A program made the position numbers and the translations under genes. Below are positions 10,780-15,551 of a stretch of DNA of 64,000 nt, one piece after another. Numbering within the stretch: position 1 is the stretch's first letter; each line of letters opens with the position of its first letter. A model generated the notes under the pieces. It saw nothing but the letters and a program-made list of their open reading frames with translations, had not been told where the DNA came from and searched no databases. The stretch is from an uncultured Sutterella sp. (GTDB lineage Bacteria > Pseudomonadota > Gammaproteobacteria > Burkholderiales > Burkholderiaceae_F), in contig UQUM01000005.1 in assembly GCA_900544255.1 (NCBI GenBank), positions 24,892-88,891 on the forward strand, read 5' to 3'.

Positions 10780-13221
10780 CTAACCGTTTTCAGAATGGTC
10801 ACGCAGACGTTCCTGGAATTCCTGACTGCGCAGGCGCCGGATGGCGGCGCTTTCGATCTGGCGCACGCGTTCGCGCGTAAGCCCCATCGCCTGGCCCACT
10901 TCCTCCAATGTATGGTCGTGGTTTGTGCCGATGCCGTAACGCAGGCGCAGCACCTGAGCTTCACGGGGCTGCAGTTCGGACAAGCAGTGCTGAATTTCGC
11001 CTTCCATCGCGGTCTTGAGGAAGCGCACCTGCGGATCGTCCGTTTCTTCCCCCTTCACAAAGTCGATGCGGCGCGCATCTTCGTCGTCGCCGATCGGCGC
11101 ATCAATCGATTCCACCCCGCGCATGGCCTGGATGAGAATCTGCACCTTCGCCAGCGGCACCTGGGAGAGTTTGGACAATTCCGCATCCGAAGGATTGCGC
11201 CCCGTTTCCTGCAGAATCTTCTGACGCACGCGTCGGATCTTGTTGTAGGACTCCGTCATGTGCACCGGAATACGGATGGTGTTGCCGTAGTCGGCCACGG
11301 CACGCGTCACGGACTGGCGCACCCACCACGTCGCATAGGTAGAAAACTTATAGCCGCGGCGGTATTCGAACTTGTCCACCGCCTTCATAAGTCCTAAGTT
11401 CCCTTCCTGAATCAGGTCGGTCATCGCAAGCCCGCGGTTGACGTACCCCTTCGCAATCGAAATCACGAGACGGAGGTTCGCTTCGATCATCTTCGCCTTG
11501 GCGTTGGCGAGGTTCGTCTGCGCGAGCTTGATCTGGCGCGAGAGATCTCGCTGATCGTGCAGCGTCAGCAACGCCGCCTTTTCGGCTTCGGACAACTCGT
11601 CCTGCAAATGGTTGATGAGGTTCTGATTCACCTTGATGCGGATCGAATAGGGCGCTCCAGACGCGATCACTTCGTCAATCCAGCCCTTATCCATGCAGCG
11701 TTCGCCCATGTTCTTCAGGAACATGTCGACAGGCATGCCGCCGCGTTCGACCATCACGCTGCGCAGACGCCGCAGGATATCGTTTACCTTGTCCATGTGC
11801 GTCGTGATGAGGTCTGCAAGATGCATCACTTCCTTCACCGCAAAACGCACGGGAGCAAGCGCCTGAGCAATATGTTCGCGGGCCGCGGCATACTGCTTCT
11901 CTTTACCCTTCACGCCGAAGGTCTTGCGGATCACGTCGAGTTCCTTGTCGCAAGACGCAAAAAGTTCGATCGCTCGATCCTTCATTTCGTCCAACTGTTC
12001 ACTCGTCATGGCCGCGGCACCGATGTCGGTCTGCACGGCGTTCTTAGCGTCTTCACCGTCCTCGCTCATTTCCGCGAGTTCCTGCGTGTCCGTAAAGCCG
12101 TCGATCACTTGGTCGATCGCCGAGTCATCGCTCTTTAAGAGTTCCGTCTGCTTCACGAGTTCTTCAACGGCCATCGGGTGCTGAATTACCGCCGACAGGA
12201 GTTTGCCCGTGTACTGTTCGATCGATTTGGCGACTTCGATTTCCCCCGCACGGGTCAGAAGCTTATGCGCCCCGACGCCGCGCAGGTATGCGCGCAGCGG
12301 ATCCTTCGAAAGCCCGGCGCTTTCTTCGGGCGTGAGCATGGCGGCGGCATCTTCTTCACTGATGTCGTCATCATCCCCCACGGGCTCATTCATGATGATG
12401 TCTTCTTCGCTCGGTGCGGTTTCAAAGACCTGAATGCCCAAGCGGCCCAGCTGATCCGTGAGTTCGGAGAGTGCTTCTTCGGTGCGGATCGCATTATCGG
12501 GGAGCTTATCGTTGATTTCAGCGATCGTCACCCAACCGCGCTGACGCCCCATGCGTACCAAGGCACTATAGCCATTGCCGCCCCCGGATCCCTCTTCATC
12601 GTCGCCTTCCACGGGCATCGGCACGCCGGAACCTTCCGCCTTTTCCACGGAATCCGCGAGCTTATCAAGGTCTTCCAAGTTCGCCAATTCTTCGTTGGGG
12701 TCAGCATCGTCATCAGCGTCCGGAACCGCATCTTCATCAAACGGCGCGTTTTCATCGTCGTCCAATTCGTCGTCGGTCTTCTTTTTAGCTTTGCGACTCG
12801 GAGCTTTCTTCACGGTCTTTACAGCTTTCGGCGCCTTTTCCGTTTTCGCCTTCGTCTTTTTCGCGGGTTTCTTTTCTTCCGCCGCTTCAACCACGGCTTC
12901 TGTCACCTCGGCTGCAGCCTTTTTGACGGCCTTTACCGCCTTTTTCACCGTTTTTTTCACGGTAGCGGTTTTTCCCTTTTCAACATCAGCCGGCGCTTCA
13001 ACCTCAGCAGCAGGGGTCTTTGCTTCCGCCTTCGCCGCCTTCGTCTTTGTGACCTTCGCGGGTTTGTCCGCCTTCGCTTTCACCGCCTTCTTACCGGCTT
13101 CTTCCGTTACCACAATGTCGTTTTCCACGTGCAGGCGCGGATTCTTCTCGAGCCACTCCATGATGGGATCGCCCGCCGCTTTCTTCATCGTCTTTTTCGT
13201 GTCTTTTTTTGCCGTTGCCAT
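10780..13221 (-). CDS. rpoD: RNA polymerase sigma-70 RpoD with long Lys/Ala-rich, H1-like N-terminal extension
   Basis: C-terminal regions 2-4 are highly conserved (DLIQEGNLGLMKAVDKFEYRRGYKFSTYATWWVRQ...). Region 1.1 starts near aa 215. The exact start codon is uncertain (M1, M12 or M21). Confidence 0.9.
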   Translation of the reverse strand: MATAKKDTKKTMKKAAGDPIMEWLEKNPRLHVENDIVVTEEAGKKAVKAKADKPAKVTKTKAAKAEAKTPAAEVEAPADVEKGKTATVKKTVKKAVKAVKKAAAEVTEAVVEAAEEKKPAKKTKAKTEKAPKAVKTVKKAPSRKAKKKTDDELDDDENAPFDEDAVPDADDDADPNEELANLEDLDKLADSVEKAEGSGVPMPVEGDDEEGSGGGNGYSALVRMGRQRGWVTIAEINDKLPDNAIRTEEALSELTDQLGRLGIQVFETAPSEEDIIMNEPVGDDDDISEEDAAAMLTPEESAGLSKDPLRAYLRGVGAHKLLTRAGEIEVAKSIEQYTGKLLSAVIQHPMAVEELVKQTELLKSDDSAIDQVIDGFTDTQELAEMSEDGEDAKNAVQTDIGAAAMTSEQLDEMKDRAIELFASCDKELDVIRKTFGVKGKEKQYAAAREHIAQALAPVRFAVKEVMHLADLITTHMDKVNDILRRLRSVMVERGGMPVDMFLKNMGERCMDKGWIDEVIASGAPYSIRIKVNQNLINHLQDELSEAEKAALLTLHDQRDLSRQIKLAQTNLANAKAKMIEANLRLVISIAKGYVNRGLAMTDLIQEGNLGLMKAVDKFEYRRGYKFSTYATWWVRQSVTRAVADYGNTIRIPVHMTESYNKIRRVRQKILQETGRNPSDAELSKLSQVPLAKVQILIQAMRGVESIDAPIGDDEDARRIDFVKGEETDDPQVRFLKTAMEGEIQHCLSELQPREAQVLRLRYGIGTNHDHTLEEVGQAMGLTRERVRQIESAAIRRLRSQEFQERLRDHSENG

Positions 13222-13265
13222 GGTATAAATAGTGTCTGCCTGAATTGGACGGAAGTTGCCAAAGG

Positions 13266-13311
13266 GAAAAACAATAGAAAAAGCGCGGTCTCTTCGTTCG
13301 GAAGAACCCGC
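13266..13311 (-). terminator. Hairpin plus U-tract (terminator/attenuator) ~50-90 nt upstream of the rpoD ATG
   Basis: Minus-sense GCGGGTTCTTC-CGAAC-GAAGAGACCGC followed by GCTTTTTCTATTGTTTTT. Confidence 0.4.
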
Positions 13312-13679
13312 TCAAACTTTTTCATTTCGTCTTCAGAATGCCCTCTTCACGCCGAATAAATGTCAGTTGCCGGATAACGTTTTCACTGCCGCTCGGTACG
13401 AATCGCGTTCACCCGACGCCCGCAGTCTTCCTGCCGCAACACACGTTAAGCCAAGGGCCGAGCTCGGTGTCCGTCCGTTTTGGGGACACGCTGTGTAGAA
13501 GTGTGTACGACACTGAATGAGTCAGCACCCCGCCTCCGACGGCTTTCGCTCGTCTCCTGGACGTGTTTGCTCCGGTAGCAAACGCGGGCGCCAAAAGTTC
13601 GTAGATTATCCCACAGTTTTACTTTCAAATACAGTTACAGAAAACTCAATCACTTGATTTTTGTCAAATATTGTTGGAA

Positions 13680-15551
13680 TCAAAGCGCTGAGGTCCCGCT
13701 CGTGCGATCGTAAAGTGCCGCAGATTCCGTCATGGACTGCTGCACGGCCTTCATACGCACCGTGAGTACGGAATACTGCTTCAAATCCGGTTCGAGAGAC
13801 GTCACGATTTCCTGCAGCCGCCGCTTGATTCGATCGATTTCCAAACGGCAAAGCGCCATGTGAATTTCCTGACGGGCCGCCGGCAACGGCGTTTCCAACA
13901 CCATTTCCTGCGTGAGCAACGTCCGATAATGAGCGGCATGAGGGCTCGAAGACAGCATCTCCAACAGCAGCTGCGGCTGTTCCACGGGATGCGCTTCGTC
14001 GGCCGCGGCCGTCCGCCACACTTCCACGATCTCCTGCGCCACCGTGTCGGTCCCGTCCGTAAATTCTTCGGCAATACGGGGGCCGAATTCCACCGTGAGC
14101 GACGGATAGCTCACAAAGTACTGCAGTAATTTTTCCCGCATATCGGCGACGCCGATCCGGGGTTCGATCACCGCAGGCGTTCTTCTCGCACCGCCTTTCC
14201 AAGCCCCCGGGCGCCGCTTCCAGTCAGGACGGCCGGTAATAAAGCCGTCCCCTTCCGCGGCCGCAATACCGAACGCCTGCGCCAATTCGTCCGCCGTCAT
14301 CCGCGCGTACATCGCGAGTTCCGATAAGAGCTGCACCCGCAATAAAGGCGCACTGCGCATGCTCACCACCAAGGGCTTGGCTTCCGCCAAAAATTGGCTG
14401 CGGCCTTCCCCGGTCGAGAGATCCTTTCCTTCCGAAACCGTCTTCACGAAAAACTGCGTGAGCGGAAGACTTTTTTCTATTTCCGCTTCAAAGGCTTCAG
14501 ACCCCTTCGCCTTAATAAGGCTGTCGGGATCGTGTTCGGGCGGCAGCACGACAAAACGCACCTCCTGCGAGTCCCCCACCACCGGAAGCGCCGCTATAAG
14601 CGCCCGACGCAATGCCTTTTGCCCAGCGCCGTCACCGTCGAAACTGAAATAAATCTTGTCCGTCGTTTTCAGGAGCTTATGCACGTGATCCGGCGTAATC
14701 GACGTTCCCAGCGCCGCCACCGCTTCCTCAAAGCCGGCCTGAGCGAGCTGAATAACGTCCATATAGCCTTCGCAGACGATGGCACGCCCCTTTTTCCGGA
14801 TGGCGTCATATGCTTCAAAGAGGCCGTAGATTTCCAGCCCCTTGTGATAAATCACCGTTTCCGGGCCATTGATGTATTTCGGTACCTCGTCAGGTACCAT
14901 CGTCCGAGCCCCGAAACTGATGACCTGACCGCGACGATTGCGGATCGGAAAAATCACGCGGCCGCGGTACCGATCGTATCGGTAACCTTTGTCATTGATG
15001 ACGACGAGGCCGCAACCGTCCTTTTCTTCCATTTCCGCGTCGTCGTACTGACTGCCGAATACATTGCGCAGACCGTGAAAGTCGTCCGGCGCGTACCCCA
15101 AACCGTAACGGCTCGCCGTCGCTCCGCTGATGCCGCGACCTTTGAGGTAATCCTGAGCGCGCTGACTTGTTTTGAGTGACTCTTTATAAAAGTCCGCCGC
15201 TACCTGCATCCGATCCGTGAGCGTCCGAGCCCGGGCCTCCCGTTCCGCTGTCTTCGGATCCTCGGCGGGCACCTGCATGCCGACCTGATCCGCAAGGCGT
15301 TTGACGGCCTCGGGAAAATTGAGCCCCTCATACTGCATCACGAACCCGATGGCCGTTCCCGAAGCGCCGCATCCGAAACACTTGAAAAACTGCTTTTGGG
15401 GATTGACGTTAAATGACGGCGTTTTCTCGTTATGAAACGGGCAACAGGCCTGGAAATTCTTACCGGTCTTTTTAAGCGGCACTACTTTATTGACGAGTTC
15501 GACGAGATCAATACGGTTTAAGAGTTCCTGAATAAAAGACTGAGGGATCAT
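13680..15551 (-). CDS. dnaG: DNA primase DnaG
   Basis: Zinc-binding CPFHNEKTPSF, TOPRIM domain, 623 aa. Located in the rpsU-yqeY-dnaG-rpoD operon. Confidence 0.9.
   Translation of the reverse strand: MIPQSFIQELLNRIDLVELVNKVVPLKKTGKNFQACCPFHNEKTPSFNVNPQKQFFKCFGCGASGTAIGFVMQYEGLNFPEAVKRLADQVGMQVPAEDPKTAEREARARTLTDRMQVAADFYKESLKTSQRAQDYLKGRGISGATASRYGLGYAPDDFHGLRNVFGSQYDDAEMEEKDGCGLVVINDKGYRYDRYRGRVIFPIRNRRGQVISFGARTMVPDEVPKYINGPETVIYHKGLEIYGLFEAYDAIRKKGRAIVCEGYMDVIQLAQAGFEEAVAALGTSITPDHVHKLLKTTDKIYFSFDGDGAGQKALRRALIAALPVVGDSQEVRFVVLPPEHDPDSLIKAKGSEAFEAEIEKSLPLTQFFVKTVSEGKDLSTGEGRSQFLAEAKPLVVSMRSAPLLRVQLLSELAMYARMTADELAQAFGIAAAEGDGFITGRPDWKRRPGAWKGGARRTPAVIEPRIGVADMREKLLQYFVSYPSLTVEFGPRIAEEFTDGTDTVAQEIVEVWRTAAADEAHPVEQPQLLLEMLSSSPHAAHYRTLLTQEMVLETPLPAARQEIHMALCRLEIDRIKRRLQEIVTSLEPDLKQYSVLTVRMKAVQQSMTESAALYDRTSGTSAL

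Follow-up and report, generated by a model that had tools for sequence, protein, structure and literature searches.

A predicted disordered, basic-then-acidic N-terminal extension of the primary sigma factor RpoD in the Sutterellaceae

The primary sigma factor of Mycobacterium tuberculosis, SigA, carries a disordered N-terminus of 225 aa that is first basic and then acidic, and removal of its acidic residues 132-179 abolishes both transcription initiation and complementation (PMC10011835). Lysine repeats, for their part, are over-represented in DNA-binding proteins, and tails of this kind have been proposed to provide a non-specific stabilisation of protein-DNA complexes, which was shown for TopA; the sigma factor HrdB is listed among the lysine-repeat proteins of Streptomyces, and the RpoD of Bordetella pertussis is named among the few lysine-repeat proteins outside the Actinobacteria (PMC5714199). 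Our literature search turned up no work devoted to an RpoD extension in proteobacteria or to the RpoD of Sutterella. The current study concerns an extension of this type encoded by rpoD in a 64,000-nucleotide stretch of DNA from an uncultured Sutterella sp. (NCBI GenBank assembly GCA_900544255.1, contig UQUM01000005.1, positions 24,892 to 88,891), which we refer to in its entirety as the window. In the 813-aa RpoD of this organism, approximately 216 codons (window 12574..13221) are found ahead of sigma-70 region 1.1, which starts near residue 217. These codons are almost certainly translated, as judged from sequence comparisons among relatives, and they encode a Lys/Ala-rich block followed by an acidic block.

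By domain content and order, the 813-aa protein is a group 1 (primary) sigma-70 factor. Its Pfam domains run from region 1.1 (residues 220-291) through region 1.2 (307-336) and the non-essential region (349-546) to regions 2, 3 and 4, with PF03979, PF00140, PF04546, PF04542, PF04539 and PF04545 all above their cut-offs. The top NCBIfam model is PRK05658 at 543.6 bits, just under the RpoD equivalog cut-off of 555, and NCBI names the homologues RpoD. An identical protein, P0001, is present in the database. Only about 8 residues precede the equivalent of GYSALVRMGRQRGW in Escherichia coli sigma-70, whereas 216 do so in the window protein. The nearest relatives are Sutterellaceae, with Sutterella sp. 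and Parasutterella secunda among the named matches, and a genome scan located a 795-aa RpoD in Duodenibacillus massiliensis (strain Marseille-P2968, locus L001) that shares the layout of the window protein; the source of the window can accordingly be described as a Duodenibacillus-like gut bacterium. A scan of the genome collection with residues 1-300 gave only three loci, its patterns having been drawn from a fast-evolving tract, and the relatives compared here were collected by exact-protein look-ups.

A first-pass annotation of the window had reported that the rpoD frame stays open for ~215 codons upstream of region 1.1 (12576-13221). This is borne out by the 216 codons we count at 12574..13221, and all of the peptides quoted in that annotation are found in the rpoD translation. 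Its argument that such an open frame is unlikely by chance holds as well, as the 654-nt stretch never stayed open in 20000 mononucleotide shuffles; its other two sense frames contain 9 and 16 stops. The ATG at 13221 (13219-13221) is the first ATG, GTG or TTG codon after an in-frame TGA located 30 codons upstream. An MA(K/T)KK N-terminus is kept in nearly all Sutterellaceae homologues, and MAKK... followed by a ..WL..N.. motif is kept among homologues down to 55-60% overall identity, a pattern of N-terminal conservation that is hard to explain unless translation starts at ATG 13221. Between the window and a near-identical strain, L004, the substitutions at first, second and third codon positions number 7/6/23 in the extension and 3/1/45 in the core, and two strains with 96-97% identical RpoD differ from the window by three extension indels of 6, 2 and 9 codons. 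Throughout the relatives the frame is open, and their many indels are all multiples of three. The GC content of third codon positions (0.62 in the extension vs 0.73 in the core) is not discriminating by itself, and we therefore relied upon the comparative evidence for coding status.

The principal challenge to this assignment would be a mis-assigned start, with translation beginning at M202, M224 or a GTG/TTG codon near region 1.1 and the upstream frame serving as an untranslated leader. There is no Shine-Dalgarno sequence before ATG 13221, in-frame ATG, GTG and TTG codons are present further in, and annotation pipelines sometimes disagree in comparable cases, all of which could be taken in favour of a downstream start. 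However, the frame is open in all relatives with indels in multiples of three, substitutions favour the third codon position, the N-terminal peptide is kept family-wide and no shuffled sequence stayed open, each of which argues against a leader, and we regard a downstream start as very improbable. In-frame ATGs occur only at codons 1, 12, 21, 202 and 224. An internal Met start just upstream of region 1.1, which the first-pass annotation had named as a possible refutation, finds no support in M202 or M224: the former is Leu in the 96%-identical strain L004, while the latter falls within the opening helix of region 1.1, at a position where the family consensus (LVRLGRQRGW) has Leu. Both were rejected as start codons. 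The absence of a Shine-Dalgarno sequence at rpoD is uninformative, because most window genes are also without one. Indeed, most of the long open reading frames (ORFs) of the window lack a Shine-Dalgarno sequence (AGGAGG-like, at least 4 nt) within 20 nt of their first start codon, which points to an organism that seldom relies on Shine-Dalgarno-led initiation. The disagreement between pipelines can be illustrated by the RpoD of Comamonas sp. 4034 (cluster of P0125), for which two starts are annotated on one contig, giving 821 aa (MGF6211853.1) and 755 aa (WP_429015266.1); it follows that pipelines disagree on the start of Lys/Ala-rich extensions. A leaderless rpoD mRNA was considered separately, owing to a -10-like ATAxT found 5 nt before the ATG in three species, and was rejected as unconvincing, the match having been made by eye only.

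Opposite the extension runs an antisense ORF at 12575..13228, which had already been interpreted as the shadow of rpoD. We reach the same conclusion, since two stops break it in strain L004. The antisense frame is open because the sense strand is without TTA, CTA and TCA codons: the window extension, with only 11 Leu and Ser residues in all, has none of them, whereas the L004 extension has two codons of this set, which break the antisense frame. Both this ORF and another on the same strand at 12178..13359 (+) were rejected as genes and treated as shadows.

The composition of the extension confirms the order of blocks described by the first-pass annotation, a Lys/Ala-rich block and then an acidic block, and the segments are collected in Table 1. 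The Lys/Ala tract contains 32% Lys, 26% Ala and 6% Pro, and 11% of its residues are acidic; for the entire extension the figures are 20% Lys, 18% Ala and 22% Asp plus Glu. The adjoining region 1.1 (residues 220-291) has a net charge of -13. AlphaFold, run on a 39-sequence alignment, predicts that the 216 residues before region 1.1 are intrinsically disordered apart from two short helices. The predicted local distance difference test (pLDDT) score is ~31 for residues 1-17 and 29-185, rises to ~61 in a predicted amphipathic helix at 19-26 and to ~48 in a predicted helix at 185-196 within the acidic tract, and reaches 76-87 in region 1.1, which is folded from residue 217. The sequence LEDLDKLADSVEKAE fits the family consensus EDLxxLEDLDKxAD, and both this segment and APFDEDAVPDADDD look like short linear motifs rather than filler. 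Lysine clusters spaced by small residues are evident at KKAVKAKADKPAKVTKTKAAK, KKTVKKAVKAVKK and KKPAKKTKAKTEKAPKAVKTVKK. Thus, like the bacterial lysine-repeat tails (PMC5714199), the extension presents lysine clusters within a terminal disordered region of a DNA-interacting protein, and like the SigA/HrdB type it presents a basic and then an acidic block at the predicted disordered N-terminus of a primary sigma factor.

Table 1. Features of the rpoD locus, in window coordinates
Feature	Position	Strand	Basis
rpoD coding sequence, 813 aa, primary sigma factor including N-terminal extension	10780..13221	-	ORF list, Pfam
Basic N-terminal cap, residues 1-16, MATAKKDTKKTMKKAA, net +5	13174..13221	-	start codon 13219-13221
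Conserved short motif, residues 17-41, GDPIMEWLEKNPRLHVENDIVVTEE, net -5	13099..13173	-	family alignment, AlphaFold
Lys/Ala-rich polyampholyte tract, residues 42-148, +35/-12, net +23	12778..13098	-	composition, AlphaFold
Acidic tract, residues 149-216, +2/-28, net -26	12574..12777	-	composition, alignments
APFDEDAVPDADDD segment, residues 155-168, in acidic tract	12718..12759	-	conserved in Duodenibacillus-like group
LEDLDKLADSVEKAE helix segment, residues 182-196, in acidic tract	12634..12678	-	conserved family-wide, predicted helical
Sigma-70 region 1.1, PF03979, residues 220-291	12349..12564	-	Pfam; folded from residue 217 in AlphaFold
Antisense shadow ORF, 217 aa, not a gene	12575..13228	+	codon-aligned reverse frame
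Conserved structured RNA or leader directly upstream of rpoD, outside the protein feature	13277..13619	-	alignment, covariation
Extended -10 TGnGATAAT of upstream RNA	13605-13613	-	conserved in alignment
5' domain of upstream RNA	~13508-13619, stems ~13520-13592	-	folding, covariance model
Terminator-like hairpin and T-tract to ~13277	13285-13311	-	by eye; ends ~56 nt before rpoD ATG

The extension had also been described as histone H1- or AlgP-like. This can be retained as a statement about Lys/Ala composition, whereas a closer relationship is not supported, given the lack of any family match, the absence of KPAA or S/TPKK periodicity and the presence of 11% acidic residues. The C-terminal tail of histone H1, Pseudomonas AlgP and chlamydial Hc1/Hc2 are alike in their Lys/Ala enrichment and predicted disorder. 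However, histone H1 possesses a winged-helix globular domain, for which there is no counterpart in the RpoD extension, and its tails contain about 40% Lys and almost no acidic residues; compared to an H1-type tail, the RpoD tract is low in Pro and is broken by Glu/Ala/Val segments. AlgP is built of KPAA repeats, while no KPAA tandem array is found in the extension, where Tandem Repeats Finder gives a weak 12-nt repeat of 3.9 copies (VKKx) plus two 2-copy repeats; SPKK and TPKK motifs are likewise absent from its sequence. Among the Pfam models, linker-histone PF00538 matched neither the whole protein at E <= 0.01 nor the extension alone at E <= 10, and the extension alone yielded no match to H1, Hc1/Hc2 or AlgP-type families in Pfam or NCBIfam. 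The chlamydial Hc1/HC2 Pfam models in particular gave nothing at E <= 10, a threshold at which the filters of HMMER drop most matches above E ~0.1, and a sequence search of PDB with the extension alone returned nothing meaningful. A weak match of the extension alone to NF004560, the NCBIfam model of an actinobacterial-type primary sigma factor (E = 5e-4), is driven by composition; the N-terminal part of this model is itself a basic-then-acidic low-complexity region.

When examining the distribution of such extensions, it is evident that they are less unusual than the first-pass annotation had supposed. An exhaustive HMMER search of 1.84 billion cluster representatives was performed, the top 150 RpoD-like representatives were taken and region 1.1 was located in 144 of them. 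At least 100 residues precede region 1.1 in 39/144 and at least 200 in 24/144, and a 40-residue span with at least 30% Lys+Arg is present in 20/39 of the long-extension proteins; 8 of these 20 contain an acidic span too, and the basic block comes first in 7/8. Long N-terminal extensions, many of them Lys/Ala-rich, are therefore common among RpoD cluster representatives. Named examples include the RpoD of Comamonas odontotermitis (WP_224149603, 821 aa), Limnobacter, Ottowia and a Rhodocyclaceae metagenome-assembled genome (MAG), as well as Undibacterium (977 aa), a member of the Myxococcota (990 aa) and Desulfovibrionaceae; in Comamonas, Limnobacter, Ottowia, Undibacterium and Myxococcota, the extended protein is what is annotated as full-length RpoD. 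One gammaproteobacterial representative (623 aa) has no extension.

Within the Sutterellaceae, the parts of the extension differ in how well they are preserved. The WL..N motif (residues 17-41) is present family-wide and even in 681-aa Sutterella forms that are without the Lys/Ala tract, whereas the tract itself is variable or missing in relatives and displays no conserved motif beyond EEKKPAKK-like words. Among the 39 homologues aligned, the length of the extension varies between 76 and 357 residues and its net charge between -26 and +7. Even within the species, metagenomic contigs carry in-frame length alleles, in which 220, 235 or 237 residues lead up to LVRMGR, and such differing lengths among near-identical strains identify the tract as a hotspot of length variation. 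In window 12778..13098, compared to loci L004, L005, L010, L012 and L020, the differences consist of in-frame indels of 6, 2 and 9 codons. These tract indels resemble imperfect local duplications, as seen for EAVAEEATA beside EAVVEAAEE. The ratio of nonsynonymous to synonymous substitution rates (dN/dS) between loci L002 and L003 is ~0.19 in the tract vs 0.06 in the core.

The data above show that the extension is coding, where it starts, how its modules are laid out, that it is predicted disordered and charge-balanced, and how it is distributed phylogenetically. On this basis we propose, with an even chance of being right, that the extension is a flexible, disordered polyampholyte arm that attracts DNA weakly and is charge-balanced by its own acidic tract. 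The extension is modular, beginning with a basic cap and an amphipathic helix motif (..IMEWLEKN..), continuing through the fast-evolving Lys/Ala tract and closing with an acidic tract, which has a conserved acidic helix at its end and runs into the likewise acidic region 1.1. By analogy with lysine-repeat tails, the lysine clusters would confer upon the holoenzyme a weak, sequence-independent affinity for DNA (or RNA), which in turn would favour association with the nucleoid, promoter search or contacts with upstream DNA. In free sigma, the acidic tract together with region 1.1 would fold back on the basic block and neutralise it, thus yielding a near-zero net charge and keeping free sigma off DNA. 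The basic-then-acidic order and the near-neutral charge both fit such a masked arm, and K+R and D+E counts in the extension rise together among homologues; DNA binding and electrostatic autoinhibition are inferred. The first-pass annotation had suggested that the extension could tether the holoenzyme to the nucleoid or to AT-rich DNA. Tethering to DNA or the nucleoid is plausible, whereas nothing points to a preference for AT-rich DNA.

Several findings weigh against a DNA-attracting arm. The extension as a whole is close to neutral, with a net charge of -3 (segments +5, -5, +23 and -26), and residues 42-148 are only moderately basic owing to the 11% acidic residues inside them. Nonsynonymous and synonymous codon changes occur at 14:21 in the extension vs 4:44 in the core, indicative of relaxed constraint. 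The tract is missing from the 681-aa Sutterella forms, so that sigma factors of this family can function without it. The correlation between K+R and D+E counts across the 39 homologues (r = 0.92) is confounded by extension length and shared ancestry. SigA lacking its basic residues 1-132 is unchanged in promoter binding, in vitro transcription and complementation (PMC10011835), and a basic block can therefore be dispensable. Lastly, we found no experimental support for DNA binding by any proteobacterial RpoD extension. The SigA deletion data, the relaxed constraint and the existence of Sutterella forms without a tract argue for a basic block that does no more than modulate. The main alternative is that the extension is a tolerated low-complexity expansion, its Lys/Ala tract being created by replication slippage and duplication in a permissive linker that joins the conserved N-terminal motif to the acidic tract, and acting as a flexible, soluble spacer (entropic bristle) with no role at DNA and with selection only upon solubility and charge neutrality. 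Such a spacer could account for the rapid indel turnover and the several length alleles within one species, for amino acid substitution raised relative to the core, for a tract that is missing in the 681-aa Sutterella RpoD and reaches more than 300 residues in others, for the paucity of conserved motifs within it, and for the dispensability of the basic part of SigA (PMC10011835). It is less easily reconciled with the recurrence of a Lys/Ala-rich-then-acidic composition in the RpoD of distant lineages, with the fact that lysine-rich composition recurs specifically in DNA-interacting proteins (PMC5714199), with a dN/dS below 1 and with the maintenance of frame and charge balance across very different lengths. 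We consider a pure spacer possible, albeit unlikely.

A further possibility is that the extension acts as a protein-interaction or assembly module, its helices at 19-26 and 182-196 binding a partner such as the RNA polymerase core, a regulator or an anti-sigma-like factor, and its charge blocks driving a multivalent self-association of holoenzyme that leads to clustering or condensates. Two conserved short helices within disordered sequence, kept even where the Lys/Ala tract is missing, and a blocky charge pattern (+23 then -26) would be in keeping with such a module, but the helices are predicted with low confidence (pLDDT 48-61) and the RpoD N-termini inspected outside the Sutterellaceae did not show the motif; we find this explanation rather doubtful. 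Returning to the weakly DNA-attracting arm, one can also envisage a more elaborate version in the form of a family-specific electrostatic switch, although we offer it as a speculation that is itself quite unlikely to be correct. In such a switch, the +23 block would be masked by the -26 block and region 1.1, and would be released upon core binding or displacement of region 1.1, so that it could hold upstream or nucleoid DNA or bring polymerases together. Helix 19-26 would provide a latch or partner site, variation in length would tune global promoter occupancy and, in a related manner, a previously undescribed structured leader RNA would control the expression of rpoD.

This RNA is encoded directly upstream of rpoD (Table 1) and bears on the question of the rpoD mRNA 5' end. 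The same RNA is found at loci L001-L006 and L008-L028. The dnaG-rpoD spacer of 458 nt diverges by ~3% between strains (by eye) vs 45/595 third positions of rpoD, and is thus more conserved than the synonymous sites of the gene. The 5' domain of the RNA is a three-way junction formed by P1, by P2 with a conserved CCGG(A) loop, by P1b (CGYC/GGCG) and by P3, with an internal loop 5'-CAGGA opposite GGA that is invariant bar one base in one locus. This architecture is adopted by 14/14 sequences when each is folded alone, and compensatory changes are observed in 12/16 pairs; 92.9% of cells are paired vs 38-64% in slid controls, and the observed value was reached by 0/500 shuffles on four of five measures and by 2/500 on the fifth. 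Further conserved blocks and a second covarying domain follow downstream of the 5' domain, although RNAalifold resolved only the first two domains of the full-length leader alignment, the rest of which aligns poorly. In the metagenome collection, 16/16 exact-pattern matches lie 240-653 nt upstream of an rpoD start codon. With the covariance model, a single copy is detected in the 64-kb window, at 13508-13619 with 101.9 bits, and no copy in the Parasutterella locus L007; Rfam yielded nothing at E <= 1 when searched with the intergenic RNA. The loop of P2 (GCCGGA) has its complement in a conserved UCCGGC ~220 nt downstream, and at locus L025 one compensatory change (loop CCGA with partner UCGG) was noted by eye only. 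A promoter consensus scan of 12400-13800 returned a single promoter-like match, inside the region 1.1 coding sequence, and overlooked the conserved extended -10, which the alignment revealed later; a terminator scan of the same interval gave 4 matches, within the shuffle expectation (mean 2.4, sd 1.8). The RNA may be an rpoD leader or attenuator, or else a separate small RNA.

The wider locus is similarly arranged among relatives, with dnaG (13680..15551, -) located upstream of rpoD on the same strand, which is the gene order of the macromolecular-synthesis operon and agrees with a primary sigma factor. On the Parasutterella secunda-type contig L007 (1..3657), two full-length rpoD-like genes occur in tandem: directly upstream of the gene for a 718-aa RpoD homologue is one for a sigma-70 of 684 aa that has regions 1.1 to 4. 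Here dnaG is not adjacent. Two of the loci are labelled as other organisms, L002 (CAVJUB010000014.1) as Hallella faecis and L003 (CAVJBF010000001.1) as an Acutalibacteraceae bacterium. Both carry a Sutterellaceae-type dnaG, leader RNA and rpoD, and over the part that aligns their RpoD shares ~90% identity with the window protein. Because a Sutterellaceae-type locus is found despite these labels, mis-binned contigs are probably present in the two MAG bins.

Long disordered N-terminal extensions on housekeeping sigma factors are widespread, yet almost unstudied outside the Actinobacteria, and the models of region 1.1 function derive from E. coli sigma-70, which is without such an extension. If it is true that a lysine-rich arm alters how DNA is found or held, models of promoter search and autoinhibition would have to be revised for a large fraction of bacteria, among them the abundant Sutterellaceae of the human gut. 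The practical value is modest. The upstream start is confirmed for this gene family, the extension is mapped into modules (a pair of short conserved helices together with a variable basic block and an acidic one), and the question can be addressed in a cultured species, Duodenibacillus massiliensis.

The closest known counterparts are found in B. pertussis and other members of the same taxonomic order, the Burkholderiales, in which the same protein has an extension likewise located ahead of region 1.1. These extensions are Lys/Ala(/Pro/Thr)-rich and in several cases are followed by an acidic block, as here, but they share no alignable similarity with the Sutterellaceae extension. Neither the WL..N helix motif nor the EDLDKLAD helix of the Sutterellaceae was seen in the RpoD of Comamonas, Limnobacter, Ottowia or Undibacterium; conversely, a ...KERALMKEFG... 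segment precedes region 1.1 in other Burkholderiales RpoD and is absent from the window protein. Since there is no alignable similarity and the motifs differ across the Burkholderiales, the extensions probably expanded independently in each lineage. M. tuberculosis SigA also possesses a long disordered N-terminus with a basic Lys/Arg/Ala/Thr/Pro block ahead of an acidic block. However, actinobacterial SigA/HrdB belong to a different phylum and their N-termini are probably of independent origin; the only hint of shared descent is the single, composition-driven match to NF004560, and extensions cannot be aligned even among Burkholderiales families. In HrdB, the lysine repeats come after a region 1.1-like segment. 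Disordered terminal lysine clusters, with Ala, Thr, Pro or Val as spacers, are likewise found in the Streptomyces TopA C-terminal domain, HupS and mycobacterial HupB. These tails sit at the C-terminus and have a strong net positive charge, whereas the RpoD tract is N-terminal, broken by Glu-rich segments and succeeded by an equally large acidic block. The Sutterellaceae extension is therefore a further family-level example of a known, under-studied feature rather than a new kind of protein, and what is new here is that its start is confirmed, its modules are mapped and an N-terminal helix motif specific to the Sutterellaceae is recognised.

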